Translations under genes and position numbers: made by a program | Notes under the pieces: model-generated | The model's database searches: none | What the model saw: the letters and a program-made list of their open reading frames with translations, nothing else | What the model was told of the DNA's origin: nothing | In this document: positions 3,456 through 22,400 of the stretch, one piece after another | Numbering within the stretch: the first letter of the stretch is position 1 | How the letters are laid out: each line of letters starts with the position of its first letter | Assembly (NCBI GenBank): GCA_934232845.1 | Contig: CAKQGD010000014.1 | Location: 1 to 24,000 of the forward strand | Source of the DNA: an uncultured Oscillospiraceae bacterium | GTDB lineage: Bacteria; Bacillota; Clostridia; Oscillospirales; Ruminococcaceae | DNA: 24,000 bases | Direction of reading: 5' to 3'

Positions 3456-3484
3456 TTGACGAAACCGTCGGGTTGTGGCATTAT
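3456..3484 (+). promoter_or_regulatory. Candidate sigma-A promoter of the tetR-MATE unit
   Basis: TTGACG (3456-3461), a 17-nt spacer ending in the extended -10 TGg, then CATTAT (3479-3484). The region is AT-rich, so the -10 register is ambiguous. Confidence 0.4.
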
Positions 3485-3529
3485 ATAAAAAAAACAGACT
3501 GGTCGGTCTATATTTTGGAGGAAACATCG

Positions 3530-4150
3530 TTGAAGCGCGAGGAAAAAAACGCACTTTCCAGAAAAAGAATATTAGAGGCGGCGGCGCGGGAGTTTTCCAA
3601 AAAAGGATACGACGGAGCTTCGCTGAATTCGTTTTGTTCGGAAAACGGCATTTCAAAAGGGATTCTTTATCATCATTTTAAAGACAAAGACGAATTATAT
3701 CTTTTGTGCGCCGAGGATTGCTTTAACCGGCTTGCCGCATATCTGGAAACACCGGTATTTGATGAATCTGATTGCCCGGAGGTGCGCCTGCAGAAATATT
3801 TTGATGCCAGACTGCGTTTCTTTACAGAGAATCCGATTTGCCTCGGAATTTTTTTGAATTCGGTATTGTATCCGCCGGCCCATTTAATCTCAAGAATTGC
3901 CGAGGTGCGCAAAAAATTTGACAGACAAAACATTTCCATTCTGACGGAGCTTTTAAAAAGCGCTCCTATGAGAGAAGGAAATACCATCCCGACGGTGGTG
4001 GATGATTTTCGAATGTATATGGATTATTTCAATGCGGTTTTACGCCCTGTGCTGGACGAGGACGAGAGCCCTGAGCAGGCGCTTCGCGAACATGAAGAAA
4101 GATGCCGTCGGCAGCTTAAGATATTATTATACGGAGTATTGGAGAATTGA
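3530..4150 (+). CDS. TetR/AcrR family transcriptional regulator
   Basis: The N-terminal helix-turn-helix signature is RKRILEAAAREFSKKGYDGASLNSFCSENGISKGILYHHFKDKDELY. The start is set at the TTG at 3530, 8 nt after GGAGG (3517-3521). The listed start at 3473 is also TTG, has no RBS and overlaps the putative -10. Confidence 0.85.
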   Translation: MKREEKNALSRKRILEAAAREFSKKGYDGASLNSFCSENGISKGILYHHFKDKDELYLLCAEDCFNRLAAYLETPVFDESDCPEVRLQKYFDARLRFFTENPICLGIFLNSVLYPPAHLISRIAEVRKKFDRQNISILTELLKSAPMREGNTIPTVVDDFRMYMDYFNAVLRPVLDEDESPEQALREHEERCRRQLKILLYGVLEN

Positions 4151-4151
4151 C

Positions 4152-5515
4152 ATGTGCAAAGATAAAACAGGGGAAAGAGAATCTGTTCTCTCTGCGGTAA
4201 AGCCTTCCAAGGCAATTGTGAGCCTCGCCGTTCCGGCTACTCTGGCTCTGCTGGCAAAAGCGATCTATAATATGTGGATACGGCGTATATCGGCATGCTG
4301 CACAGCGATGAAGCGCTGGCGGCGGTGGGCGTAACACTGCCTCTGCTTCTCATCATGGTTTCTGTGGAAAACATTTTCGCGGCGGGTGCTGCCGTTCTGG
4401 CGGGCCGCCAGCTCGGAGCCGGAGGAAAAGAGGATGCCAATCGCACGGTGACGACGATTGCGGCGCTTTCCATGATGATTGGAATTCTGCTGTGCGTATT
4501 GGGAATTGTGTTTATCGAGCCGCTTCTGAAAGGATTCGGCGCATCCGACGCCGTGCTGCCTCAGGCAAAGGATTATGCATTTTGGATGTTTGTTGCCGCG
4601 GTTTTCAACCTGCCTGCACAAAGTCTTAATTGCGCGGCGCGTGCGGAATCTTCCGTAAAAATCTCTTGCGGTCGGCGCGGCGCTCAACGTTCTTCTGGAT
4701 CCTGTGTTCATGTTTTCATGGGGATTGAATATGGGCGTAGAGGGAGCTTCTTTAGCTACGACAATTTCTCAGTGCGTTACTTTTGCAATTCTTGCATGGT
4801 TTTATCTTTCCGGGCGCTCTATTATCAAGATCAGACCGGAATACTTCAGCCCATCCCGCAGAATGGTGTGGGTTGTGGTGTCAATCGGCATTCCTACGGC
4901 GATTATACAAATCTGTCTTGCGGCGGCAACTTCTCTCACTAATATCGCGGTAAAGCCCTTGGCGGATTCCGATTTGATCATTGCCGCATATGGCGTGGTG
5001 CAGAGACTGATTCTGATAGGCTGTTATATCATTATGGGCTCTTTATGCAGGGCTATCAGCCGGTGGCGTCTTATGCCTACGGCGCAAGAAACGAAGAGCG
5101 TTTTCATGATTCGGTAAGATTTGCGATACGAGGAGCGCTGCTTTTGACGGCTATCGTTGAGGTAATTTATATTCTGCTTGCAGAGCCGCTGATTATGCTG
5201 TTTAATCAAAATCCCGCAGTGATTGAATATGGGCGCCTCCTGCTCATTTCTCAGGTGGCGATATATCCGGCGTTTGGCCTTTGCTATATGATGTCCATTA
5301 CTTTCCAAACAGTTGGAGCGTCAAAAATGGGTGTGTTTTTGTCACTGCTTCGCCAGGGACTGTTTTATATTCCGTTTATTTTAGTTCTGCCTAATCTTTT
5401 GGGAATCAAAGGCGTCTATCTTTCTCAGCCCTTCGCCGATGTGTTCACTATATTGGTGTGCGTATGCCTGATTAAGCCTATGAAGCGCATCGCCTCACGA
5501 AATATGTTCACTTAA
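4152..5515 (+). pseudogene. MATE family efflux transporter, disrupted by three single-nucleotide frameshifts
   Basis: MATE-like sequence is continuous only if four ORF pieces are joined. The pieces are 4152-4274 (frame 0), 4274-~4660 (frame 2), ~4662-~5042 (frame 0) and 5045-5515 (frame 2). The junctions read YNM|VDTAYIG (atgGtg collapsed to atgtg at 4274), SVK|SLAVGAALNVLLDP (A5 run at 4657-4661) and IIMG..F|MQGYQPV (T3 run at 5042-5044). The ATG at 4152 lies 1 nt after the tetR stop and is preceded by GGAG. Confidence 0.75.
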
Positions 5516-5777: not shown

Positions 5778-6701
5778 ATGCGGGAATACAGAATTTCGGA
5801 TTTTCTTGATCCGGCGGTGGAATCGCCGCAGGAGGCGGTCGGTACGGTGCTCGTCTGCACCCAAGAGGAATGGGATGCGGTTGAACTCCCTGATCTGACG
5901 CGCCAGAGCTATGAGATGATTCGACGCGGAAGCCGCTACTGCCGTGCAGAGACACTTCGCACAAGCTATTTTGGTACGCTTTGTTTTCCGAACCGAAAAA
6001 AAATCTGCGGTCCGCCCGCGGACAGCCTTCATTTCTGTCTGAGTGAGGAAAAATTGATCATCATCGACGCGGATGCCTCGACCGTCGACTGGTGCGAGGG
6101 GATGAAAGAAGGCAAAAGCCTTCACCGAAAAACTCCTGCGGCCGTGCTGTTTGAGCTGATCCGGATGAAATCGACGGATGATGACGTTTTGCTTGATAAT
6201 CTCAAGAACAGAATGTATCGCATGGAAGAAAACATTCTCAGCGAGAACCCCAGCGGCCATATCGGAGAGCAGATTCTTCGCACACGGCATGAGCTGCTGA
6301 CACTTCGCTCTCATTACGACCAAATGGAAATTCTGTCAGAGACGCTTTGCGAAAACGCGAACGGCGCTCTTACAAAGCAGGACTGCCGCCTTTTCCGGGT
6401 GCTTGCGGGACGATACGGTCATTTTTTGTCGGATGCGCAGATGCTGCTCGATTACTCGGTGCAGGTAAGGGATCTCTATCAGACGCAGATCGACGTCAAG
6501 CAGAACCAGATTATGAAGCTGCTCACTATCGTTACGACGGTCTTTTTCCCGCTGACTTTGATTGCAGGCTGGTATGGAATGAATTTTTCTTATATGCCGG
6601 AGCTGCGCTGGCACGGCAGTTATTTTGTATTGATTGCGCTCTGTGCAGGAATTGTCTGCGTCAATCTGCGTATCTTTAAAAAATACGGCTTCTTTCGTTA
6701 A
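5778..6701 (+). CDS. corA: CorA family magnesium/cobalt transporter
   Basis: The C-terminal part has two transmembrane segments with the signature GWYGMNF (the GMN motif) followed by MPEL. The size (307 aa) and a soluble N-terminal domain are typical of the family. Confidence 0.85.
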   Translation: MREYRISDFLDPAVESPQEAVGTVLVCTQEEWDAVELPDLTRQSYEMIRRGSRYCRAETLRTSYFGTLCFPNRKKICGPPADSLHFCLSEEKLIIIDADASTVDWCEGMKEGKSLHRKTPAAVLFELIRMKSTDDDVLLDNLKNRMYRMEENILSENPSGHIGEQILRTRHELLTLRSHYDQMEILSETLCENANGALTKQDCRLFRVLAGRYGHFLSDAQMLLDYSVQVRDLYQTQIDVKQNQIMKLLTIVTTVFFPLTLIAGWYGMNFSYMPELRWHGSYFVLIALCAGIVCVNLRIFKKYGFFR

Positions 6702-6722
6702 GAGGATCGTGTCAAGCTAAAA

Positions 6723-6750
6723 TCCGCCTTTGCAAAAAGACGGATTTTTT
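6723..6750 (+). terminator. Rho-independent terminator of corA
   Basis: tccgccttt (6723-6731) pairs with aaagacgga (6736-6744), giving 9 bp with one mismatch and a GCAA loop. It is followed by tttttt. Confidence 0.6.
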
Positions 6751-6858
6751 ACTTTAGATGTAAAAATGATAACTTTTGCGAATTTCCAAAAGCATCTTTT
6801 CGGTGAAAAAAGAAGACCGTTTTTCTTTTGGAAAAGACAAGGAAAAGGAAACTTCTCC

Positions 6859-6887
6859 TTGAATTTCGGGCATATATCCGATACAAT
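6859..6887 (+). promoter_or_regulatory. Candidate sigma-A promoter of the yjjI-yjjW-ABC unit
   Basis: TTGAAT (6859-6864), a 17-nt spacer, then TACAAT (6882-6887). It lies about 50 nt upstream of the ATG at 6936. Confidence 0.5.
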
Positions 6888-6935
6888 AAATACGTTGGAT
6901 ATATAAAAAATCCGATTATTTCAGGGGGGATCAGG

Positions 6936-8483
6936 ATGCGCCCGATTTCGATGGAAACCGTGGAAAAAAAGAGAGAAGAAATTTTGCGGGAAATCTGCAA
7001 TCGTCAGGAGAGCCACGAGCAGAAAGTGACTGCCCTTTCCCGTGCGGCGGAGAACTTTCTCACCGTGCTCGATGAACCCGAGGGTCTTGACGAACTGATG
7101 CGCTGCCCGCAGGAGGAACGCTGCATCTGCAATCTGTTTGAGGGAGACGCGCCCTACCGTCCGCGCTATATTGCTCCCGACTATGATAAATTTCTGCGGC
7201 AGGGAAGCCGTTTTCTTCAGCTTGAGCCGCCTCGTGATTTTGAAGAGGCGCTTAATTCGCTGATGATTTTGTACCACAACGTACCGAGTATTACGAACTA
7301 TCCCGTTTATATCGGCAGACTTGACCGCCTGCTGACGCCTTATCTCGACGGTGTGGACGACGAACGCGCCAAAAAAGCGCTGCGGCTGTTTTTCACCCAA
7401 ATCGACCGTACGATTTTGGATTCCTTCTGTCATGCAAATATCGGACCGGAACCGTCGCGCGCGGGCAGGCTGATTCTCGAGGCGGAGGGTGAACTGGAAA
7501 ACGCCGTGCCGAACCTCACCATGCTTGTGGATGAGGAAAAAACCACCGATGATTTTCTGCTTGATGGAATTCGCTGCGCCATGCACAGCGCCAAGCCGAG
7601 CTTTGCAAACGATAAAATGTTCCGAAAAGAGCTGGGCGGCGGTTATGTAATCGCCAGCTGCTACAACGGTCTGCTCGAGGGAGGCGGCAGCTATACGCTT
7701 TCCCGTCTGCTGCTTTCCGGGATTGCGAAGCGTTCGAAAAACCTGCGTGATTTCAAGGAAAATCAGCTGCCGCATGTCATGGACGTGATGGCGCGCTATA
7801 TGGATGAACGGATTCGCTTTATTGCACAGGATACCGGTTTCTTTGAGAGCAATTTCCTTTCGGTCGAGGGACTGATTCAGCGCGACCGCTTTACCGCGAT
7901 GTTCGGCATGGTGGGTCTTGCCGAGTGTGTAAATCTCCTTCTGGAGAAGGAGGGACGCGGCAATCTCCGCTTTGGCCGCGACGCCGAGGCCGATGATCTC
8001 GGCGTTGAGATCATCGAACAGATCGACGCATTTAACCGTGCGCATACAAATCCCTACTGCGGTGCGACAGGCGGACATTTTCTCCTGCATGCGCAGGTGG
8101 GACTGGCGGACGATCACAACATGAGTCCCGGCACGCGGATCCCGGTGGGAGAGGAACCCGCGCAGCTTGTGGACCATCTCAAACAGATCAATCGCTTCCA
8201 TAAATATTTCCCGTCCGGCACGGGTGATATTTTCCCGGTCGATTTGACGGTGCATCAAAATCCCGCGTTTGTGCTTGACCTCATCCGCGGCTCCTTCTCG
8301 CAGGAGATTCGCTATCTTTCTTTCTACCGCAGCGACAGCGACGTTGTGCGTGTGACGGGTTATCTCGTCAAACGCAGCGAAATCGAAAAGCTTGCCGCGG
8401 GAGAAAACGTCCGTCAGAATACCACGGGCCTCGGCTATGGAGCCATGCAGAACTGCAAGGCCTTCGACCGGCGGATCCGCTGA
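6936..8483 (+). CDS. yjjI: YjjI-family (DUF3029) putative glycyl radical enzyme
   Basis: At 515 aa from the ATG at 6936 (RBS GGGGGGA at 6924-6930) it matches the approximately 516 aa I recall for E. coli YjjI. The C-terminal motif VVRVTGYLV (Gly codon at 8358-8360, 40 residues from the end) fits the glycyl-radical fingerprint R-V-x-G-Y. A YjjW-type activase follows 2 nt downstream. Confidence 0.8.
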   Translation: MRPISMETVEKKREEILREICNRQESHEQKVTALSRAAENFLTVLDEPEGLDELMRCPQEERCICNLFEGDAPYRPRYIAPDYDKFLRQGSRFLQLEPPRDFEEALNSLMILYHNVPSITNYPVYIGRLDRLLTPYLDGVDDERAKKALRLFFTQIDRTILDSFCHANIGPEPSRAGRLILEAEGELENAVPNLTMLVDEEKTTDDFLLDGIRCAMHSAKPSFANDKMFRKELGGGYVIASCYNGLLEGGGSYTLSRLLLSGIAKRSKNLRDFKENQLPHVMDVMARYMDERIRFIAQDTGFFESNFLSVEGLIQRDRFTAMFGMVGLAECVNLLLEKEGRGNLRFGRDAEADDLGVEIIEQIDAFNRAHTNPYCGATGGHFLLHAQVGLADDHNMSPGTRIPVGEEPAQLVDHLKQINRFHKYFPSGTGDIFPVDLTVHQNPAFVLDLIRGSFSQEIRYLSFYRSDSDVVRVTGYLVKRSEIEKLAAGENVRQNTTGLGYGAMQNCKAFDRRIR

Positions 8484-8485
8484 GA

Positions 8486-9328
8486 ATGGAGACGGCTCTT
8501 GTCAATCGCATCCTGCCGTTTTCCTCGGTGGACGGCCCCGGCAACCGCACCGCCGTTTTTTTGCAGGGATGCAACTTCGACTGCCGATACTGCCATAACC
8601 CCGAGACGATCCGCTTGTGTGTGTCTTGCGGGGCATGTCTGCCGTATTGCAAAACAGGCGCGCTCTCGCTTCAAGACGGGCATGTGACCTACGACTTTTC
8701 CAAATGCGTCTTCTGCGACGAGTGCTTTCGGCATTGTCCGAACAGCAGCTCTCCCCGCGTGCGGCGGATGACCGCCGTTCAGGTGATGGACGAAGTGAAA
8801 AGAAATCTTCCCTTTATTCGGGGAATCACCGTTTCGGGCGGGGAATGCACACAGCAGCGGGATTTTCTTCTTGCGCTTCTTACCCTCGCCAAGGCGGAGG
8901 GACTCGGCACGCTGCTTGACTCCAACGGCAGCTATGATTTTTCCGCCGATCCCGCGCTTCTTGCGGTGACGGACGGCGTGATGCTCGACGTCAAGGCGTG
9001 GTCGCCCGACGAGCACCTGCGTATAACGGGACAGACAAACGCGATGGTGCGGCAGAACCTTTCCTTTCTTGCGGCGTCAGGCAAGCTGACAGAGGTGCGC
9101 ACCGTGATTGTGCCCGGCCTGTTCGATGTGCGCAAGACGGTCCGCGAGACGGCGCGTGCCATTGCCCCTTTCCTGTCTGTGGGAAACGTGCGCTGCAAGA
9201 TTATTCGCTACCGTCCGCAGGGGGTGCGCCCGGCGTACCGCAGCATGACAGAACCGGACGATGCGCTTCTTGCAGAGCTTCGCGCGCTTGCAGAACGCGA
9301 GGGCCTGCCCGATGTGGTGACAACCTGA
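8486..9328 (+). CDS. yjjW: YjjW-family glycyl radical enzyme activating enzyme (radical SAM)
   Basis: The N-terminus VDGPGNRTAVFLQGCNFDCRYCHNPET carries the radical-SAM CX3CX2C motif (C29/C33/C36). Two ferredoxin-like motifs follow: CVSCGACLPYC and CVFCDECFRHCP. There is also a GGEC block. The start lies 2 nt after the yjjI stop. Confidence 0.85.
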   Translation: METALVNRILPFSSVDGPGNRTAVFLQGCNFDCRYCHNPETIRLCVSCGACLPYCKTGALSLQDGHVTYDFSKCVFCDECFRHCPNSSSPRVRRMTAVQVMDEVKRNLPFIRGITVSGGECTQQRDFLLALLTLAKAEGLGTLLDSNGSYDFSADPALLAVTDGVMLDVKAWSPDEHLRITGQTNAMVRQNLSFLAASGKLTEVRTVIVPGLFDVRKTVRETARAIAPFLSVGNVRCKIIRYRPQGVRPAYRSMTEPDDALLAELRALAEREGLPDVVTT

Positions 9329-9378
9329 AAAAAAACGCAATGTTTTTTCGATAGATAAAAAGCGAAGGAGGGGATTTT

Positions 9379-10929
9379 TTGACGCGGGAGGAAAGAATCG
9401 ACCGCTCTGTAAAAGTGGTCGAAATGAAAAAAATCGTCAAAAAATTCGGCGATTTTGTCGCGAACGACGGGATTGACCTGACCGTTTACAAGGGAGAAAT
9501 CCACGCGATTCTCGGTGAAAACGGTGCGGGAAAATCGACGCTGATGAATCAGCTTTACGGTTTGTACGCGCCGACGTCGGGTGAAATTTGGGCGAACGGA
9601 AAGCAGCTTGTAACCGACAGTCCCAGAAAAGCGATCGAAGCGGGCGTCGGCATGGTGCATCAGCACTTTATGCTGGTGCAGCCATTTACGGTGACGGAAA
9701 ACATCGTTCTCGGTGTGGAACCGCTGCACGGCATTTCTTTGGACATGGCGGCGGCTCGGAAAAATGTGGTTGAAATTTCCAAGCGCTATGGGCTTGACAT
9801 TGATCCGGATGCGAAAATTGAGGATATCTCCGTCGGAATGCAGCAGCGCGTCGAGATTCTCAAGGCGCTTTACCGCGGCGCCGAGATTCTGATTTTGGAC
9901 GAGCCGACTGCTTCCCTTACGCCGCAGGAAATTCATGAGCTGATCGAAATTCTGCACAACCTGACCGAGGACGGCAAATCTATTCTTTTGATTACGCATA
10001 AGCTCAAGGAAATCAAGGCTGTGGCGGATCGCTGCACGATCATCCGTCTTGGAAAATATATCGGCACGGTGGATGTGGAAACCGTGTCGGAAAGCGAGCT
10101 TGCCAGCATGATGGTGGGACGCAGCGTCACCTTTGAAGTGGAAAAGCCGGAGCAGAAGCCCGGAGACGTCGTGCTTGAGGTCAAGGACCTGCATGGCGTG
10201 GATTACCGCGGGGTAGAGATTCTGCGCGGACTGAACCTTACGGTTCGAAAAGGAGAAATTCTCGGCATCGCGGGCATCGACGGCAACGGGCAGACCGAGA
10301 TGGTCGAGATTATCACCGGCCTGCGGAAAGCGACCAAGGGTTCCGTATGCATCAATAAAACGGAGATCTGCAACAAACCGCCCCGCACAGGTTTTTTGGC
10401 GGGAGTGTCGAGCATACCGGCCGACCGGCAGAAGCACGGACTTGTGCTTGATTTTACGGTGGCCGAGAATATGGTTCTGCAGAATTTCCGCGAACCGCAG
10501 TTCCAGCGGCACGGTATTTTGAATAAAGACGCCATCCGCCGCTATACGCGGGAGGCCGTCGAAAAATACGACGTGCGCCCGCACGACTGCGTGGACAAGC
10601 TCGCGGGAACGCTTTCGGGCGGCAATCAGCAAAAAGTGATCATCGCCCGCGAGGTCAACAATGACAAAGACCTTCTGATTGCGGTGAATCCCACGCGCGG
10701 CCTTGACGTCGGCGCGATCGAATATGTGCATAAGTATATCGTGGAGCAGCGCAATAAAGGGAAAGCCGTTCTGCTCGTATCGTTTGAACTTGACGAGGTC
10801 ATGGGTCTTTCGGATCGCATCGACGTCATTTATGCCGGTAAAATTGTCGGCGAAATGGCAGGCTGCGACGCCGATGAGAACCGCCTTGGCCTGATGATGG
10901 CGGGAGGAGAACATCATGCAGAAGATTAA
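9379..10929 (+). CDS. ABC transporter ATP-binding protein with duplicated ATPase domains, BMP/nucleoside-uptake type (YufO/NupO/RnsB-like)
   Basis: The first Walker A is GENGAGKST, followed by GMVHQHFMLVQPFTVTENIVLG, which is characteristic of this subfamily. The second half has GIDGNGQTE, the signature LSGGNQQK and Walker B LLIAVNPTRGLD. The TTG start at 9379 lies 7 nt after AGGAGG (9366-9371). Confidence 0.85.
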   Translation: MTREERIDRSVKVVEMKKIVKKFGDFVANDGIDLTVYKGEIHAILGENGAGKSTLMNQLYGLYAPTSGEIWANGKQLVTDSPRKAIEAGVGMVHQHFMLVQPFTVTENIVLGVEPLHGISLDMAAARKNVVEISKRYGLDIDPDAKIEDISVGMQQRVEILKALYRGAEILILDEPTASLTPQEIHELIEILHNLTEDGKSILLITHKLKEIKAVADRCTIIRLGKYIGTVDVETVSESELASMMVGRSVTFEVEKPEQKPGDVVLEVKDLHGVDYRGVEILRGLNLTVRKGEILGIAGIDGNGQTEMVEIITGLRKATKGSVCINKTEICNKPPRTGFLAGVSSIPADRQKHGLVLDFTVAENMVLQNFREPQFQRHGILNKDAIRRYTREAVEKYDVRPHDCVDKLAGTLSGGNQQKVIIAREVNNDKDLLIAVNPTRGLDVGAIEYVHKYIVEQRNKGKAVLLVSFELDEVMGLSDRIDVIYAGKIVGEMAGCDADENRLGLMMAGGEHHAED

Positions 10930-11974
10930 ACGGCTGCTGGGCGGAAAATTCGCCCTGACGATTTTTTCGGTTCTCCTGTCTTTTCTGGTGGGTGCGATCT
11001 TTTTGACGATGATCGGGATTGACCCGATTGCGGCGTATCAAAAAATGATTGACGGCGCGGTCGGCTCCCGGAAAAATATCGCCTATTCCGTTGTGTATGC
11101 TTCTCCGCTGATTCTGGTGGGGCTTTCTGTGGCGTTTTCTTTCCGCACGGGTGTGTTCAACATCGGGGCGGAGGGACAGTTCGTCATGGGATCCATGGCC
11201 GCTTGTGTCGTGGGGATTCTCGTTCCGGCTCCGCCTGTGGTGCTGGTGCCTCTGTGCTTTCTGGCGGCGGCCGCCGCCGGCGCCCTGTGGGGGGTTCTCG
11301 TGGCTTTCTTAAAGACAAAATGGGGCATCAATGAGGTGCTGTCCATGATTATGTTCAACTGGATCGCCTTTTATCTTTCCAACTATATTGCGGGTCTGCC
11401 CGCAATTAAGACCGAAGGAAACGCCGAGGCGACCAAGAATGTGCAGGACGCCGCCCGTATCCTCTTTCCCGAAGCATGGAGAAAGGCGCTCTGTCCGACC
11501 TCAAACTGGGGCATTCTTCTCGCCGTAATCGCAGTGGCGGTGGTCTATATCATCATCGAGAAAACGACGCTCGGCTATCAGCTCAAGGCGGTCGGCTTCA
11601 ACCGCAGCGCCGCCGAGTACGGCGGCATCAACCCGAACCGTGCGATCATTACGGCGATTGCCATCTCCGGCGTGCTGGCCGGCCTCGGCGGTGCGGTGCA
11701 GCTGCTTGGCATGGGACAGCGCATCAGTATTTTTTCCGGACAGGAAGGCTTCGGCTTTCAGGGAATCAGCGTGGCGCTGATCGGTGCCTCGAACCCCATC
11801 GGTGTTCTCTTCGCGGGTCTGTTTTACGGCGCGCTGAAGTACGGAGGAAATAAGCTCAATCTGATCGGCGCGCCTTCCGAGGTGATCGATATCATCATGG
11901 GTACGGTCGTCTTCTTTATCGCGATTTCGCATGTATTTCGCTTTGTGCGGCATAAGAAAGGAGGAAAGGCGTAA
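10916..11974 (+). CDS. ABC transporter permease (YufP/NupP/RnsC-like)
   Basis: This is a polytopic membrane protein carrying FNIGAEGQF and GFNRSAAEYGGIN blocks typical of the first permease in BMP-type nucleoside/sugar importers. Its ATG overlaps the end of the ATPase gene by 14 nt, and GGAGGAG lies upstream. Confidence 0.8.
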   Translation: MQKIKRLLGGKFALTIFSVLLSFLVGAIFLTMIGIDPIAAYQKMIDGAVGSRKNIAYSVVYASPLILVGLSVAFSFRTGVFNIGAEGQFVMGSMAACVVGILVPAPPVVLVPLCFLAAAAAGALWGVLVAFLKTKWGINEVLSMIMFNWIAFYLSNYIAGLPAIKTEGNAEATKNVQDAARILFPEAWRKALCPTSNWGILLAVIAVAVVYIIIEKTTLGYQLKAVGFNRSAAEYGGINPNRAIITAIAISGVLAGLGGAVQLLGMGQRISIFSGQEGFGFQGISVALIGASNPIGVLFAGLFYGALKYGGNKLNLIGAPSEVIDIIMGTVVFFIAISHVFRFVRHKKGGKA

Positions 11975-12915
11975 TGGATAGCTTTATCAATAATCTTGGC
12001 GTTGTGCTCTATGCGACGCTGGTGTATACGCCTCCGCTGCTTTTTGCCGCGCTCGGCTCCTGCTTTTCCGAAAACAGCGGCATCGTGAATATCGGTATCG
12101 AGGGCATGATGACGATCGGCGCGTTCACGGGAGCCTGCATCGGGCACTTCACCGGCATGCCGTGGATTTCGTTTCTCTGCGCCGGGCTTGCGGGCGCGGC
12201 CTTCGGCGCGCTGCATGCTTTTGCCACGGTCAAGCTGAACGCCGACCAGACCATTTCCGGCACGGCGATCAATTTCCTTGCGCCGGGCGTTGCGCTTCTG
12301 ATGGCGAAAGCACTGTTTAATTCCTCCGACACGCCGGCGCTTTCCGATGCGAAGCTGCCGCGCCTGTTCACCTCTGTCTTTGAGGGAGGTTCGGTGGGAG
12401 CGAATTTTCTGAAAAACATCTTTGTCAACTATGCGTCGACCTACCTTGTGTTTCTGGTCGTCGTGCTGGTTTGGTTCGTGTTTTACAAAACGCGCTTCGG
12501 CCTGCGTCTGCGCGCCTGCGGTGAGCACCCCAAGGCATGCGATACGCTGGGCATCAACGTACAAAGAATGCGTTTCACCTGCGTGGTGATCTCCGGCTTT
12601 CTGGCCGGTCTCGGCGGTGCATGCGTTACGATGGCGACGATGAATCAGTTTCGGCCGACGTCTATTGTGGGACAGGGCTTTATCGCAATCGCCGCGGTGA
12701 TTTTCGGTAAGTTCCGCCCGCAGGGCGCGATGATGGCATGCCTGCTCTTTGGCATGTGCACCGGTCTCAAGGTCGTACTCGGTTCGAACGCGGTGATTTC
12801 TTCGCAGCTGATCTCCATGATCCCGTATGCGGTTACGGTTGTGGTGCTGATTCTGTTTGTCGGCAAGTCTCATGTTCCCGCCGCAAACGGAAAGCCCTAC
12901 GTCAAGAGCCGCTGA
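11974..12915 (+). CDS. ABC transporter permease (YufQ/NupQ/RnsD-like)
   Basis: It has VNIGIEGMM and RACGEHPKACDTLGINV blocks typical of the second permease. The ATG overlaps the upstream TAA (taATGg), and AGGAGGAAAGG lies upstream. Confidence 0.8.
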   Translation: MDSFINNLGVVLYATLVYTPPLLFAALGSCFSENSGIVNIGIEGMMTIGAFTGACIGHFTGMPWISFLCAGLAGAAFGALHAFATVKLNADQTISGTAINFLAPGVALLMAKALFNSSDTPALSDAKLPRLFTSVFEGGSVGANFLKNIFVNYASTYLVFLVVVLVWFVFYKTRFGLRLRACGEHPKACDTLGINVQRMRFTCVVISGFLAGLGGACVTMATMNQFRPTSIVGQGFIAIAAVIFGKFRPQGAMMACLLFGMCTGLKVVLGSNAVISSQLISMIPYAVTVVVLILFVGKSHVPAANGKPYVKSR

Positions 12916-12967
12916 ATCGGTTTGGTAAGAAAAGCGATTCTCATTTTTAAGCAGCCGCAAAACAATT

Positions 12968-13000
12968 TAGCGGCGGGTTTCTTACCCGCCGCTAATTCTT
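12968..13000 (+). terminator. Rho-independent terminator of the ABC operon
   Basis: tagcggcgggt (12968-12978) pairs perfectly with acccgccgcta (12984-12994), giving 11 bp and a 5-nt loop. It is followed by the T-rich attcttt. Confidence 0.6.
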
Positions 13001-13194
13001 TGTAAAACGTGCCGCAAAGCAGTTGAAAGAGGACTATGCATAAGCGCAGCCGTCTGTCGGACGGCAGCTCCGCCCAGAAAGCTGCACCGACAAAATCCGA
13101 AACAGGCAGTCTCCGGGCGATTGTCCGGCAGAGATCCGGCTTTCGATGGAGAAAGAAATCCGAAATCCTGCTTTTTAGGATGAAGTCAATATGG

Positions 13195-13235
13195 AAAAAA
13201 GGCGTCCTGCCGGTTTTGCAGACCGACGGGACGTC
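13195..13235 (-). terminator. Probable rho-independent terminator of the ytvI-like gene
   Basis: On the minus strand, gacgtcc...ggacgcc form an outer 7-bp stem with one mismatch, and gtcgg/ccggc form an inner stem. This is followed by U6 (the plus-strand A6 at 13195-13200). Confidence 0.45.
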
Positions 13236-13286
13236 GCTTTGTCTATGAGCGCAGTTTGTTTCAGCCGAACAATTATGAGAAAGCAC

Positions 13287-14345
13287 TCAGGTTTTATAAA
13301 GAGGAATTCCTTCCACCGTGGTAAGATACCGAATCAGCAGTGCGGCGACCGGCATTAAGAAAATGCCCCATACGCCGATCACTTTCAGACCGATGAACAT
13401 GGCGGACAGCGTTACCACGGGGTGGAGACCCAGCTGATCCCCGACGATGCGCGGCTCAATAATGTTGCGGATCACCGTAATCGCCGCGTAGAGCAGAATA
13501 AGCCCCACGCCTGTGCCGGCAGTGCCTGCGATCAGATGATAAAGCGCCCATGGAATCAGAATAGCGCCGGAGCCGAGCAGCGGAAGAATATCCAAAACGG
13601 CCGTCAGTGCCGCAATGCTCAGGGCATTTTCAATCTTCAGGAAAGAAAGCCCGATGGAAAGCTCTGCAAAAGTGACGATCATAATGATCAGATAGGCACG
13701 CACCAGCCGAAAAAGGCAAGAGGTCAAAAAGTTCTTAATATCAAGAATGAGCGGCTGCGCCCGTTTGGGGATTTGACGCATTAAAAATCCCGTGATGCGG
13801 GTATAGTCCATACAGATGTAGAACGAGGATACGATCATAAAAACGAAACCAATTAAGAACATAGGAAAGCCCTTGACAGCACCGGTTACGGTTGAGATAA
13901 GCCATGACGACAAGGAGGAGACCACATCTGTCATCGCGCTGGAGAGAACGTCAAAAATTTCGGATAGAGACAGCGCAAAGGCGGGGGCAAGTGCCTGCAG
14001 CCACTCCACCGTCTGATCTCCAAGGCTTTGCAGGGCCGGCAGCAGGCTGTCGCGGAAAAAAACAGGAAAGGACTGCGCCGCGCCGATTATACGCTCCACG
14101 GTAAAAACCGCTATGCCCCAGAACGCGAGAATGACCAGTGCGTAAAACAGTACGGCAATTACGGCGACCGGAGCCCCGCCGCGGATTTTCAGCCGGCGGG
14201 AAATATGTTTAAACAGATAGGCGAGGGCAAAGCCTCCGAGAAAAGGCCAGATGAGCGGTACAGCGAATTTTAAAGTACATAATACAAGGAGAACGATTAC
14301 TGCCCAAAAACAAAAATTCTGTAAAAAACAAATGCGTTTTTCCAT
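13287..14345 (-). CDS. AI-2E family transporter / sporulation integral membrane protein YtvI-like (UPF0118)
   Basis: It has eight or so hydrophobic segments and the family-typical C-terminal block IRNIIEPRIVGDQLGLHPVVTLSAMFIGLKVIGVWG. The RBS AAGGAG lies 8 nt upstream of the ATG at 14345. Confidence 0.7.
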   Translation of the reverse strand: MEKRICFLQNFCFWAVIVLLVLCTLKFAVPLIWPFLGGFALAYLFKHISRRLKIRGGAPVAVIAVLFYALVILAFWGIAVFTVERIIGAAQSFPVFFRDSLLPALQSLGDQTVEWLQALAPAFALSLSEIFDVLSSAMTDVVSSLSSWLISTVTGAVKGFPMFLIGFVFMIVSSFYICMDYTRITGFLMRQIPKRAQPLILDIKNFLTSCLFRLVRAYLIIMIVTFAELSIGLSFLKIENALSIAALTAVLDILPLLGSGAILIPWALYHLIAGTAGTGVGLILLYAAITVIRNIIEPRIVGDQLGLHPVVTLSAMFIGLKVIGVWGIFLMPVAALLIRYLTTVEGIPLYKT

Positions 14346-18679: not shown

Positions 18680-19456
18680 TTATTCTTCGATGCCGGTATA
18701 TCCCATCAGGGTGCGGTCCGCTTCGGCGGCTGTGTGCTTTCCGGATGCGATTGCATAGCAGACAAAAGAACGGGCGTCTCTTTTTCTTTCTTTTCCCGTG
18801 CAGAAAAGAACGAGGTCAAACTGCTCTTTCAGCTTGGCGGCGGTATTTCCCGAGATCTCGGTTTTGGAGACGAACCGGACGCCTTCCGCCTCCATCAGGG
18901 CGATGCGGCGGCGGATGATTTCTTTCGGCAGACGTTTTTCAAGTGCATTTCCAAGCAGAGAGCCGCCCGGCTCATCGTCTTTTTCAAAGACGGTGACCTC
19001 GTGCCCGCGGCGGTTCAGATAATAGGCGGCGGACAGTCCCACCGGACCGCTGCCTACGACGGCGATCTTCTTTCCGGAACGGACAGCGGGAGGAGAGGGC
19101 TGCATCCAGCCGTGCTCAAAGGCGTATTCTATCAAATACAGCTCGTTTTCCCGCACCGTGACAGCGCCGTCCACATTTTTGCGCGTGCAGGCCTGCTCAC
19201 AGAAAGCGGGGCAGACCCGACCGGTAAATTCCGGGAAACAGTTGGTGCGAAGCAGGCGCTCGAGCGCATAGCGAACATTCCCCTTGCGCAGCAGGTCGTT
19301 CCATTCCGGAATCAGATTGTGCAGCGGGCAGCCGAACTGTTTTCCTTCCAGTTCTATGTTTGCCTGACAGAAGGGAACGCCGCAATTATAGCAGCGTGCG
19401 CATTGCGCCATACGTTCCTCAAGGCTGTGCGTTTCGCAGTATGCTTTTTTCTCCAT
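18680..19456 (-). CDS. gltD: Glutamate synthase small-subunit-like protein, abnormally short (lacks the central NAD(P)H-binding domain)
   Basis: The N-terminal Fe-S cysteine motifs are CARCYNCGVPFC, CPLHNLIPEW and GRVCPAFCEQAC. The first dinucleotide fold is KKIAVVGSGPVGLSAAYYL...VTVFEKDDEPGG. After FDLVLFCTG the sequence runs directly into the GltD C-terminal helix (YAIASGKHTAAEADRTLMG). The ATG lies 3 nt after the gltB stop, and GGAGG sits inside the end of gltB. Confidence 0.75.
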   Translation of the reverse strand: MEKKAYCETHSLEERMAQCARCYNCGVPFCQANIELEGKQFGCPLHNLIPEWNDLLRKGNVRYALERLLRTNCFPEFTGRVCPAFCEQACTRKNVDGAVTVRENELYLIEYAFEHGWMQPSPPAVRSGKKIAVVGSGPVGLSAAYYLNRRGHEVTVFEKDDEPGGSLLGNALEKRLPKEIIRRRIALMEAEGVRFVSKTEISGNTAAKLKEQFDLVLFCTGKERKRDARSFVCYAIASGKHTAAEADRTLMGYTGIEE

Positions 19457-19459
19457 GAA

Positions 19460-22400
19460 TCACGCCTCCTTTTCCGCAAAGGCGATCAGTTCCGCTTCGT
19501 CGCGCGTCATGCCGCGCTCCTCAAGGCGTGCGATTTCCTCCGCCATGATGCTGTAATCGCGGGGAACGATCTTTTTAAACAGGGAAACACGGCTGTCGAA
19601 GTCCGCAAGGAATTCCTTGGCCCGCGGCGAATCGGTTTCGGCCGCATGCGCCGTAAGAAGGGCGCGAAGCTGTGCAATATCCTTGGGGTCGGAGAGGGGC
19701 TCAATAGAGACGAGGGCCTTGTTCACGCGCAGATACAGGTCATGATCGGCGTCGAGCACATAGGCGACGCCGCCCGACATGCCCGCAGCAAAATTGCATC
19801 CGGTACGTCCCAGCACAACGACCCGCCCGCCTGTCATATATTCACAGCCGTGATCGCCGACACCTTCGACAACGGCGGAAGCGCCGGAGTTGCGCACGGC
19901 GAAGCGTTCGCCCGCGACGCCGTTGACATATGCCTCACCGGAGGTGGCGCCGTACAGGGCGACGTTGCCCACAATGACGTTTTCTCCGGGGTCAAGAGTG
20001 CTGTTTCGGTCGGGACGCAGAATCAGACGGCCGCCGGAAAGTCCTTTTCCGAAATAGTCGTTGCTGTCTCCTTCCAGACGGAGTGTCAGCCCTTTGGGAA
20101 TAAAAGCCCCGAAGGACTGTCCCGCACCGCCGCGGCAGCGCACCACGTAGCTGTCGTCGGAAAGAAGGTTTCCAAACCGCCGCGTCAGTTCTGCACCGAA
20201 AATCGTGCCGAAGGTGCGGTCGGTGCAGGAAACGGAAACCTCGGTCTCGTGCGGGGCGCCGTCCTCAAGCATATGCAGCAGCACGGTTTCGTCGGGCGTT
20301 TTTTCCAGTTCAAAGTCAAAAGTGTGCTTCGGGTCAAAGCGCGTTGCCTCTCCATTATCGGGAGCCTTGTCAAGCAGCGAGCACACATCCACCATTGCGG
20401 CACGCCGCGTGACCTGATGCGGTCTCACACGCAGCAGCTCGGTGCGGCCGACCATCTCGTCAATGGTGCGAATGCCGAGAGAGGCCATGGTTTCTCTGAG
20501 CTCTTCGGCGACGAAAAGCATGTAGCGCATGACGTGCTCGGGTTTGGCGGAGAAGTTTTTACGAAGCTCGGGATTCTGCGTGGCGATTCCCATGGGGCAG
20601 GTGTCTTTGTTGCACAGGCGCATCATGCGGCAGCCCATCGCGACCATCGGCGCGGTTGCAAAGCCGAATTCCTCCGCGCCGAGCAGACAGGCGACTGCTG
20701 CGTCAAAGGCGTTCATCAGCTTGCCGTCTACCTCGAGACGGACGCGCGAACGCAGGCCGTTCTGCACAAGGGTTTGATGCGCTTCGGCGAGGCCGAGCTC
20801 CCACGGCAGGCCCGCATTGTAGAGCGAGTTCTGCGGAGCCGCACCCGTACCGCCGTCCGCACCGGAAATCAGCACGGTCTGCGCGCCGGCCTTTGCCACA
20901 CCGGAGGCGATTGTGCCGACGCCCGCCTCGCTGACGAGCTTGACGGAGATATTGGCGTTTACATTGGCGTTTTTAAGATCATAAATCAGCTGTGCCAGAT
21001 CCTCGATAGAGTAAATATCGTGGTGAGGCGGAGGAGAAATCAGCGCTACGCCGGGCGTTGCGTACCGTGTTTTGGCGATCCACGGCCAAACCTTGCCGCC
21101 CGGCAGATGACCTCCTTCGCCCGGTTTTGCGCCTTGTGCCATTTTAATCTGAATTTCCTTGGCGCTGACAAGATATTCGCTTGTCACGCCGAAGCGCCCG
21201 GATGCGACCTGTTTGATGGCGGAGTTCGTTTTGGTGCCGAGACGCTCAGGCAGTTCGCCGCCCTCACCGCAGTTGGACTTGCCGCCCAAGCGGTTCATCG
21301 CCTCGGCGAGGCATTCGTGTGCTTCCTGAGAGATTGCGCCGTAAGAAATCGCTCCCGTCTTAAAACGACGCACGATCGATGCGGCGGGCTCCACTTCCTC
21401 AAGGGGAATGGGAGTGACATGATCCGTGTTAAATTCAAACAGTCCGCGCAGCGTGTGCGGAACATCCTCCGACCGGGCGAAAACGGAATACTTTTTGTAC
21501 TCCTCGTAGGAATTCTCCCGCACGGCTTTTTGCAGAGTTAAGATAGTCTGTGGCTTCCACATATGATCTTCCGCACGCTGGCCCGCGCGTTCGCGGTGAA
21601 TACCTGCGCTCTCGAGCCCCTGGCCGGTGGGCAGCCCCATCGGGTCAAACGCATTGTCGTGCCGCCATTCGACTGCTTCGGCGATTTCATCGAGGCCGAT
21701 GCCGCCTACGCGGCTGATAGTGTTGGTGAAATACTTGTCGATTACGCTGCGGCTGATGCCGACTGCCTCGAAAATCTGCGCGCTGCGGTAGGACTGTATG
21801 GTCGAAATGCCCATCTTTGACGCAATGCGCACAATGCCGTTGGAGACGGCCTCGTCATAGGCCTGTACTGCGGCATAGGGGTCGCGGTCAAGCATACCGC
21901 GCTCAATCAGTTCGCCGACGCATTCCTGTGCGAGGTAAGGGTTGACCGCGGTCGCGCCAAAGCCAAGCAGCGCCGCAAAATGATGCACGCATCGCGGCTC
22001 CGCGCTCTCTAAAATGATGGAGACTGCGGTGCGCTTTTTGGTGCGGACAAGGTACTGCTGCAGAGCGGACACCGCCAGCAGAGAAGGGATCGCGGCGCGG
22101 TTTTCGTCGACGCCCCGGTCAGAGAGAATCAGAATATTCGCGCCGCTTCGGTATGCTTTGTCGCAGCGGACAAACAGTTTTTCAAGTGCGTGTTCAAGCG
22201 AGGTGTTGCTGTAATACAAAAGCGGGATAACCGCACTTTTCAGACCCGGCATATCGAGAGACTTGATTTTGAGCAGCTCCATGCTGGTGAGAATCGGCCC
22301 CTCAAGCTGCAGAACACGGCAATTTTCCGCGCGATCCTCCAGCAGGTTGCCGTCCGCGCCGACATAGACCTTGGTATCCGTGACGATCTTTTCACGAATA

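Follow-up and report, generated by a model that had tools for sequence, protein, structure and literature searches.

To our knowledge, YjjI and its activase YjjW are among the last glycyl radical enzymes of Escherichia coli without an assigned function. Here we describe a yjjI-yjjW pair in a 24,000-nucleotide stretch of DNA from an uncultured Oscillospiraceae bacterium (contig CAKQGD010000014.1, positions 1 to 24,000, about 54% G+C; hereafter the window), where the pair stands directly upstream of the ATPase and permease genes of an ATP-binding cassette (ABC) importer. This importer appears to be of the BMP/PnrA type, to which the nucleoside importers NupNOPQ of Bacillus subtilis and RnsBACD of Lactococcus lactis also belong.

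What has been published on YjjI concerns its radical and its regulation. It is still called an uncharacterised putative glycyl radical enzyme, and Gly465 of the E. coli protein, the predicted radical glycine, has been labelled in vivo by a radical probe (bioRxiv 10.64898/2026.08.13.742689). A biclustering study of 2011 grouped E. coli yjjI with the nar genes and with FNR/NarP motifs, and guessed at a role in nitrogen metabolism (PMC3228777). Both yjjI and yjjW are anaerobically induced in Yersinia intermedia (PMC3792023), and in an E. coli LysR-regulator dataset yjjI shifts along with adhE, hybO and ynfE. Our search, which did not cover all journals, found no literature linking YjjI with nucleosides.

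Taking the explanation as a whole, we think it probable that positions 6859-12995 of the window form one self-contained transcription unit, made up of a promoter, yjjI, yjjW, an ATPase gene, two permease genes and a terminator, and that this unit represents the conserved core of an anaerobic nucleoside uptake-and-utilisation module of gut Clostridia. Judged by genomic context, a nucleoside-linked anaerobic function for YjjI and YjjW themselves is likely. All of the genes fall into known families, and the new element is a functional assignment, with good support, of an orphan family of radical enzymes to nucleoside metabolism.

The yjjI unit and its neighbourhood in gut Clostridia

Gene identities come from Pfam and NCBIfam scans, the Pfam run covering 20 open reading frames (ORFs) of the window that are plausible genes, and all comparisons together drew on about 170 related loci. 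The unit contains the following elements:

6859-6887, + strand: sigma-70-type promoter, TTGAAT-17-TACAAT (consensus scan and conserved position)
6872-6904, no strand assigned: inverted repeat ATATATCCGA / TTGGATATAT, 9/10 complementary, bracketing the -10 hexamer (read from the sequence)
6936-8483, + strand: yjjI, YjjI-family glycyl radical enzyme, 515 amino acids (TIGR04040, PF11230)
8486-9328, + strand: yjjW, radical-SAM activase with a ferredoxin-like dicluster insert, 280 amino acids (TIGR04041, Radical_SAM, Fer4_7)
9329-9378, + strand: gap of 50 nucleotides (nt) between yjjW and the ATPase gene, with ribosome-binding site AAGGAGGGG and no credible terminator
9379-10929, + strand: ATPase with two fused ABC domains (CUT2 / BMP type), 516 amino acids, TTG start (PF00005 twice)
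10916-11974, + strand: permease 1 (PF02653), overlapping the ATPase gene by 14 nt
11974-12915, + strand: permease 2 (PF02653), its ATG overlapping the TAA of permease 1 by 1 nt (TAATG)
12967-12995, both strands: bidirectional intrinsic terminator that closes the unit and is common to a convergent ytvI-like gene

Across gut Clostridia the radical pair repeatedly keeps this company. Our first census took one genome per species and comprised 80 loci with YjjI proteins of 63-77% identity, mostly labelled Oscillospiraceae or Lachnospiraceae, onto which we mapped the window proteins, the E. coli Deo proteins and orthologous BMP, cdd and PNP proteins. The dominant order is BMP, yjjI, yjjW, ATPase, permease, permease, with PNP and cdd as optional genes in front and deoA, or PNP-deoC-cdd-deoB, as optional genes behind. 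An ATPase gene lies directly downstream of yjjW on the same strand in 58/69 informative loci, and a BMP gene, which encodes the receptor, immediately upstream of yjjI in 50/73; both flanks are present together in 45 of the 63 fully informative loci, and in 7/63 the ABC genes are present but the 800 nt upstream hold no BMP gene. Of the 48 loci with wide flanks, 29 have one or more of PNP, cdd, deoA, deoB and deoC within 10 kb. By these counts the radical pair is normally wedged between the receptor and ATPase genes of a nucleoside importer, and the recurrence of nucleoside genes around yjjI bears out the link to nucleoside handling proposed in the preliminary description of this DNA.

The window departs from the dominant order on its upstream side. 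Its YjjI is nearest to proteins of uncultured Oscillospiraceae and Gemmiger-like gut bacteria, and on a YjjI similarity dendrogram it clusters with the closest long-contig relative (87% YjjI identity), which has the order PNP-deoB-cdd-BMP-YjjI-YjjW-ABC-perm-perm. Because the window groups with this BMP-carrying locus, its BMP-less state seems to be derived: in the window lineage, genes for a MATE efflux protein and CorA appear to have replaced the PNP-deoB-cdd-BMP flank by rearrangement. The junction between corA and yjjI is not an assembly artefact, since three metagenome contigs of 99.3-99.7% identity cover yjjI and the two of them that extend upstream (L084 and L085) show it too. Intact yjjI-yjjW-ATPase-permease-permease units that lack a BMP gene recur in at least four other species (L026, L031, L039 and L040). 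The window is also without the deoA gene that follows the block in Gemmiger-like loci (e.g. L002).

The transcription signals fit a unit of this extent. The ORF finder's choice of a TTG at 6828 as the start of yjjI is wrong; homologues start at the ATG at 6936, which follows the ribosome-binding site GGGGGGA. Since the start is at 6936 and not at 6828, the promoter at 6859-6887 lies upstream of the gene. As a consensus match it is weak evidence, with 9/12 matches and 10 such sites in the region versus 5.7 +/- 2.8 in shuffles. It becomes credible because its position is conserved: 11 orthologous loci carry a -35 / extended -10 promoter, TTGAAA-N17-TGATACAATAA, 45-65 nt upstream of yjjI, the promoter-like element first pointed out in the preliminary description aligns with it, and TA.AAT is invariant across the 12 loci of the alignment.

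The inverted repeat around the -10 hexamer drives a fold of -27 kcal/mol (z = -3.2) of positions 6830-6940 and may be an operator; most orthologous loci have no conserved counterpart. A search of 79 regions upstream of yjjI with k-mers and inverted repeats recovered the promoter alone and no shared operator, and at the gathering threshold Rfam had no match, to a riboswitch or any other RNA, in the window and seven orthologous loci.

Downstream of the promoter, the stop codon of yjjI (TGA, 8481-8483) is followed 2 nt further on by the ATG of yjjW at 8486. The gap after yjjW holds an A/U hairpin of -6.1 kcal/mol that is no better than shuffles (z = +0.9) and AAGGAGGGG before the TTG at 9379, which agrees with the earlier reading of a weak hairpin and a strong ribosome-binding site; the overlaps of 14 and then 1 nt between the ABC genes, likewise read earlier, agree with the sequence. 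The only strong + strand terminator after the promoter is at 12967-12995 (12 bp stem, 8 GC pairs, -25.6 kcal/mol, z = -5.9), a small correction to the 12968-13000 given before; the other + strand hits are weak (5-8 bp) and lie within coding sequence.

The same pattern of gaps holds among relatives, where a terminator-like hairpin occurs in 2/60 yjjW-to-ATPase gaps (median 74 nt) versus 33/52 BMP-to-yjjI gaps (median 190 nt). In many loci the conserved promoter is placed between the BMP terminator and yjjI. The conserved unit would be yjjI-yjjW-ATPase-permease-permease with its own promoter, and the receptor gene a separate upstream cistron. Such a separation would explain how the BMP-less arrangement of the window could still be expressed. 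The unit is bordered by these features:

5778-6701, + strand: corA (Pfam/NCBIfam)
6719-6752, + strand: intrinsic terminator of corA (hairpin and U-run, -12.9 kcal/mol, z = -2.6)
13287-14345, - strand: ytvI-like gene, convergent (Pfam/NCBIfam)

The corA terminator shields the yjjI unit from transcription arriving from upstream.

Nucleoside genes beyond gut Clostridia, the importer and its receptor

The link to nucleoside genes is met again far from the gut clade. In E. coli K-12, yjjW-yjjI adjoins deoCABD, as the preliminary description had stated, and faces it divergently; in Edwardsiella the pair lies between deoCABD and a gene for a NupC-family nucleoside permease; and in another gammaproteobacterial genome a NupC gene stands 70 nt upstream of yjjI on the same strand. 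One of six distant look-ups (L095) has the order yjjI-yjjW-BMP-ATPase-perm-perm-amidohydrolase-PNP-deoB, which appears again in L133. A second census took 80 metagenome loci of a distant clade of 497-amino-acid YjjI proteins, 40 of them informative, and BMP-type ABC genes lie within 8 kb in 10/40. The order BMP-ATPase-perm-perm-yjjI-yjjW is found there with gaps of 10-60 nt in L173-L176, and with about 1.7 kb between permease 2 and yjjI in L168 and L169. In L129, yjjI-yjjW heads a cdd-deoA-deoC-deoB-PNP operon that is divergent from a BMP-ABC operon.

Counting these cases, yjjI-yjjW is joined to BMP-type ABC genes in at least four gene orders, and at least five arrangements couple the pair to nucleoside genes, involving two unrelated transporter families (BMP-ABC and NupC) and two phyla. 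We estimate that a BMP-type ABC operon would fall within a 16-kb window by chance in roughly 1% of cases, versus the 84% and 25% observed. Chance or mere hitch-hiking is unlikely given at least five arrangements, two transporter families and two phyla.

In E. coli K-12 (L001), a perfect DeoR operator palindrome, TGTTAGAATTCTAACA, lies within the yjjI coding region, and a one-mismatch copy lies at deoP2 (the two operators being at 13665-13680 and 14264-14279). The deoP2 region binds CytR/CRP. The placement of the yjjI promoter region between two DeoR operators, beside deoP2, suggests nucleoside-responsive control of yjjI.

Other neighbourhoods of yjjI were seen in single loci or small groups. 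In Clostridium estertheticum-like loci (L092, 2820-4825; L105 and L106, 5423-7425), paired genes for a pseudouridine kinase and a pseudouridine-5'-phosphate glycosidase, further nucleoside-related neighbours, precede yjjI on its strand; the distance is about 0.6 kb in L106 and, with other genes in between, about 3 kb in L092. One otherwise stand-alone pair, L010, is exceptional among such pairs in that its flanks hold a metallophosphoesterase (8522-9886), whose C-terminal domain is of the cyclic-nucleotide phosphodiesterase type, and a PfkB-family ribokinase-like kinase (12430-13374); PfkB genes also precede yjjI in L147 and L149. By tblastn, YjjI has no adjoining YjjW in L052, L053, L056, L070, L126 and L139, and in L053 the ATPase gene comes directly after yjjI. 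Such YjjI copies are either served by another activase or inactive.

As for the importer itself, in 58 loci the ATPase encoded after yjjW shares 65-82% identity with that of the window, and orthologues of both permeases occur in the first census. The three motifs earlier taken as signatures of BMP-type importers (VHQHFMLV, NIGAEGQ and NIGIEGMM) are all found in the window proteins. The best NCBIfam matches of the ATPase and permeases are BMP-linked 'putative B6 ABC transporter' models, all below cutoff.

The receptor protein of the closest relative's operon points to the ligand. Its match to PDB 7X0R, the Clostridium thermocellum protein Lbp, has E = 1e-124 and about 68% identity (counted on the printed alignment). 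The structure search also returned these nucleoside-receptor relatives:

Treponema pallidum PnrA/TmpC, 2e-53
pneumococcal PnrA, 1e-49
Borrelia BmpA, 3e-42
Borrelia BmpD, 2e-33

Lbp was first reported to bind laminaribiose (cited in PMC9601137). In its 1.5-Å structure, the density fits guanosine and neither laminaribiose nor cellobiose, and a mutant lacking transporter L, the importer to which Lbp belongs, grows normally on laminaribiose (PMC9601137). Among the genes drawn for the transporter-L cluster, the figure legend names 'pgm', 'hp' and 'rsam', and the authors do not comment on the radical genes (PMC9601137). Going by this legend, these are probably deoB, yjjI and yjjW. Receptor homology and the flanking PNP, cdd and deo genes largely support a placement of the window ABC system among nucleoside importers; a grouping with sugar importers, raised earlier as the contrary outcome, is not what we find, as the receptor orthologue Lbp holds guanosine.

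The window has no receptor gene of its own, as had been noticed before: a PF02608 (Bmp) gene is absent from the Pfam scans of the 20 ORFs, and tblastn of all six frames with two orthologous BMP proteins gave only noise at E <= 10, with no gene or remnant in the 24-kb window. Searches of the window for cdd, PNP, deoA and deoC by tblastn with relatives' proteins also gave only noise at E <= 10. The preliminary description had offered an unlinked receptor gene or a transporter of altered specificity as explanations. A receptor encoded elsewhere may well account for the arrangement, and altered specificity need not be invoked, because the BMP gene normally lies upstream of yjjI and that flank was apparently lost by rearrangement. 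Unlinked binding-protein genes are common among ABC importers. Even the ATPase gene of such an importer can be unlinked (PMC9601137).

Strain variants bear on the state of the importer. In L084, which comes from two samples, and L085 (both 99.4% identical to the window), window position 10228 is joined to 12507, so that 2.28 kb (10229-12506) are gone. The deletion lies at an 8-bp direct repeat, TCTGCGCG (window 10221-10228 and 12507-12514; L084 5474-5481), and takes out permease 1 together with the C-terminal half of the ATPase and the greater part of permease 2, so that the N-terminal half of the ATPase is fused to the end of permease 2. L086, a third contig, shows no break at the left deletion junction. 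L084 and L085 end 77 and 55 nt past the junction, a pattern that would be expected of a de Bruijn assembler where a true minority variant rejoins the main path, and the deletion looks like a true strain-level polymorphism. L084 and L085 also differ from the window in the spacer between corA and yjjI, where the window has 20 nt extra (6788-6807), and in the G-run of the yjjI ribosome-binding site, where it has one G fewer (6924). We considered reading purifying selection from strain single-nucleotide polymorphisms and set this aside, as the counts (non-synonymous 2/4 in yjjI and 3/6 in yjjW) are too few to interpret.

Elsewhere in the window, the MATE efflux gene (4002-5515), downstream of a TetR-family gene (3473-4150), is split into at least two ORFs with the middle part out of frame. 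L084 lacks the 2-nt 'CT' of window 5039-5040 and has a longer open frame there; the break is either a strain-specific frameshift or a sequencing error. On the - strand at 18680-23977, a glutamate synthase gene (1505 amino acids) is followed by a GltD-like ORF of only 258 amino acids, shorter than expected, which may be truncated or split. A protein encoded at 22-1755 combines metallo-beta-lactamase-like diiron, flavodoxin, flavin reductase and rubredoxin domains, and is probably a flavodiiron protein of the kind by which strict anaerobes typically detoxify oxygen or NO.

YjjI residues, fold and possible chemistry

Family membership of the two radical proteins is clear. YjjI scores 652.9 bits on TIGR04040 (cutoff 498.3) and 703.5 bits on PF11230 (cutoff 23; E = 1e-211), and YjjW scores 340.8 bits on TIGR04041 (cutoff 250.2). 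The glycyl motif of YjjI is R472-V-T-G475-Y476 and its cysteine motif S241-C242-Y243-N244. G475, C242 and N244 are invariant in family alignments of 40 and of 19 sequences; at Y243 and at Y476, one or two of the 19 sequences have F. By analogy with the probe labelling of Gly465 in the E. coli enzyme, a stable glycyl radical is predicted on the window YjjI. Many charged residues are likewise invariant (E69, R77, H166, K220, R257, E311, H385, D393 and R401), and a polar substrate, for instance a sugar or a phosphate ester, would be in keeping with them. C65 is conserved in 39/40 close homologues and in 13/19 distant ones.

We found no solved structure of any sequence relative of YjjI. An AlphaFold2 model built with 40 homologues is confident (pLDDT 92.6, pTM 0.91) and has the ten-stranded alpha/beta barrel common to NrdD, the class III ribonucleotide reductase (RNR), and pyruvate formate-lyase (PFL). 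Foldseek against the PDB returned 81 matches at E <= 0.001, and all of the 50 best listed are glycyl radical enzymes. Of the top 18, 16 are class III RNRs (E to 5e-16, TMq 0.6-0.72); PFL-like structures reach TMq 0.55-0.66.

An identification of YjjI as an NrdD was considered and rejected. Its score on the Pfam NRDD model (PF13597) is 19.6 bits, below the gathering score of 26.2, for a match that spans residues 235-404, and it scores 22.1 on the PFL-like Pfam model, under the threshold of 24.3. YjjW stays below the cutoffs of both NrdG models, with 84 bits for NrdG2 (cutoff 131) and 46 for NrdG (cutoff 126); with its ferredoxin-like dicluster insert it resembles PFLE/PFLC-type activases, and is PflA-like rather than NrdG-like. 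The hhalign comparison of YjjI with E. coli NrdD is weak (probability 73%, E = 3e-5) and begins at NrdD residue 146. A residue-level equivalence with NrdD was also dropped, as hhalign aligns the thiyl cysteine only roughly and a second active-site cysteine is not assignable.

On these grounds a working mechanism can be sketched. In the ancestral state, a nucleoside-binding lipoprotein would have been encoded just upstream as a separately terminated and probably more highly expressed cistron, with genes for nucleoside phosphorylases, cytidine deaminase, phosphopentomutase and deoxyribose-phosphate aldolase in the flanks. With that upstream flank replaced, the pump of the window lineage would use a binding protein encoded elsewhere, or would no longer function. 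Under anoxia, YjjW would put a radical on Gly475 of YjjI, which would then be passed to Cys242, and the Cys242 thiyl radical would attack an imported nucleoside or its pentose (phosphate) moiety.

For the reaction itself we tentatively favour RNR-like chemistry at ribose C3'/C2', in which the 2' substituent would be lost with or without reduction; the odds are against it in this exact form. It is favoured because of the model fold, the recurrent partnership with DeoC and the presence of other Deo enzymes that would cover the phosphorolytic steps. DeoC handles deoxyribose-5-phosphate only. The 2'-deoxy product would be split by the Deo enzymes to acetaldehyde and glyceraldehyde-3-phosphate. In its most specific form, which we consider doubtful, YjjI would be a nucleoside- or pentose-phosphate-level relative of anaerobic RNR, removing the 2'-oxygen of an imported ribonucleoside or a modified one (e.g. 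2'-O-methyl) and feeding the phosphorylases, phosphopentomutase and DeoC.

Alternative readings and comparison with known systems

Several observations weigh against a nucleoside module transcribed as one unit. The nucleoside link is strong and recurrent, but far from universal, and most distant homologues stand alone: five of the six distant look-ups (Hypnocyclicus, Anoxybacter, C. estertheticum, Alkalithermobacter and Atribacteria) and 29/40 informative loci of the second census have stand-alone pairs, and Proteus has the pair with no such nucleoside neighbours. In the gut clade, 11/63 loci have neither BMP nor ABC genes, and the neighbours of stand-alone pairs there show no pattern (unrelated functions by Pfam on 20 neighbouring genes). 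Since the gut-clade loci are related by descent, the counts overstate independence; there are perhaps five or six independent linkages. We infer co-transcription of yjjI-yjjW with the ABC genes from anatomy and comparison. In this species yjjI-yjjW persist, but the importer half may be decaying or may no longer be needed. The preference of the model for NrdD folds is modest and would say little on the substrate, because the profile alignment to E. coli NrdD is weak.

Some of these points would suit a reading in which the pair merely hitch-hikes in a common neighbourhood and the substrate of YjjI/YjjW is non-nucleoside, for example in the nitrogen or nitrosative-stress metabolism proposed by the biclustering study of 2011 (PMC3228777). 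The stand-alone distant homologues and the relatedness of the gut-clade loci fit it, as does the placing of E. coli yjjI alongside nar genes and FNR/NarP motifs in that study, although FNR control is compatible with any anaerobic enzyme. We consider it improbable in view of at least five gene orders across two transporter families and two phyla, frequencies well above the chance estimate, and several loci in which the genes are packed as close operon partners, only 10-60 nt apart. Nor does the importer readily serve another ligand, such as riboflavin, vitamin B6 or laminaribiose, that YjjI would then use. This would accord with the sub-cutoff 'putative B6' models and the first report on Lbp (cited in PMC9601137), yet laminaribiose cannot fit the Lbp crystal structure with guanosine and the transporter-L mutant grows on that sugar (PMC9601137); moreover, PNP, cdd, deoA, deoB and deoC flank orthologous loci, and the nearest other solved relatives of the receptor, PnrA and BmpA/D, are nucleoside receptors. 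We give this reading a very small chance.

Two further possibilities concern the unit itself. With no BMP gene or remnant in 24 kb and the deletion in L084 and L085, the importer is perhaps decaying, and could be a remnant left in this lineage by receptor loss, with only yjjI-yjjW functional; stand-alone yjjIW pairs are, after all, common in the same clade. However, the ABC genes of the window are intact, retain translational coupling and a strong ribosome-binding site, and are 65-82% identical to their orthologues, while BMP-less intact units recur in other species and receptor genes are often unlinked, which makes decay unlikely. Very unlikely, in our judgement, is that the ABC genes have a transcript of their own, driven by an unrecognised promoter in or before the 50-nt gap. 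Non-consensus promoters may escape a sigma-70 scan, and the only promoter-like sites that the scan gave for this part of the unit (11019, 11049 and 11706) lie within ABC coding sequence; the gap itself has neither a terminator nor a promoter-like site, 58/60 gaps of relatives lack a terminator-like hairpin, and the five-gene block moves as a unit.

Returning to the nucleoside module, its interest lies in giving an orphan enzyme, of a family abundant in human-gut and animal-gut Clostridia, a functional lead. The recurrent links, in differing gene orders, to a guanosine-binding type of ABC importer, to NupC permeases and to entire deo-type catabolic operons narrow the substrate search to nucleosides or their pentose moiety under anoxia, and the question is open to direct test in E. 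coli with existing genetics. If YjjI does remove the 2'-oxygen of an imported ribonucleoside, gut bacteria and enterobacteria would ferment RNA-derived ribose by an anaerobic route that is new and that may also serve as an electron sink; RNR-like action on free nucleosides would be a new enzyme activity, and would add a branch to the ways in which nucleic acids are scavenged anaerobically in the gut.

Among glycyl radical enzymes, class III RNR offers the closest solved fold to YjjI. Both are glycyl radical enzymes active only without oxygen, and both are tied to nucleoside or nucleotide chemistry, YjjI by its genomic context. The two share about 13-15% of their sequence, E. coli NrdD is longer than YjjI by about 200 residues, and the weak, core-only alignments match no counterpart of the N-terminal ATP-cone region, which YjjI may therefore lack. 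The context of YjjI points to nucleosides taken up from outside, whereas class III RNR acts on cellular nucleoside triphosphates. PFL-type enzymes (PflB, CutC, HypD and the glycerol/propanediol dehydratases) share the ten-stranded barrel and C-terminal glycyl loop, and their PflA-type activases, like YjjW, carry auxiliary Fe-S clusters. PFL itself has a CC motif and the eliminases a GCxE motif; YjjI has SCYN instead, and is about 250-300 residues shorter. E. coli YjjI/YjjW (b4380/b4379) is much nearer, with 43% identity over the full length, the same RVTGY and SCYN cysteine motifs and an adjoining activase; it diverges from deoCABD with no adjoining transporter gene, whereas the window pair sits within an ABC importer operon.

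On the importer side, the BMP/PnrA-type systems of T. pallidum and Streptococcus pneumoniae (PnrA) and of Borrelia (BmpA-D) have the same fused double ATPase and two PF02653 permeases. The window unit differs from these characterised importers in having no receptor gene in the window, and a glycyl radical enzyme and activase between receptor and ATPase genes, the usual arrangement in its relatives, have not been described for them. A further parallel is transporter L of C. thermocellum, whose Lbp is the orthologue of the receptor protein found in the operon of the closest relative. Although it was described in print as a putative transporter of laminaribiose, it appears to be a nucleoside module with radical genes.

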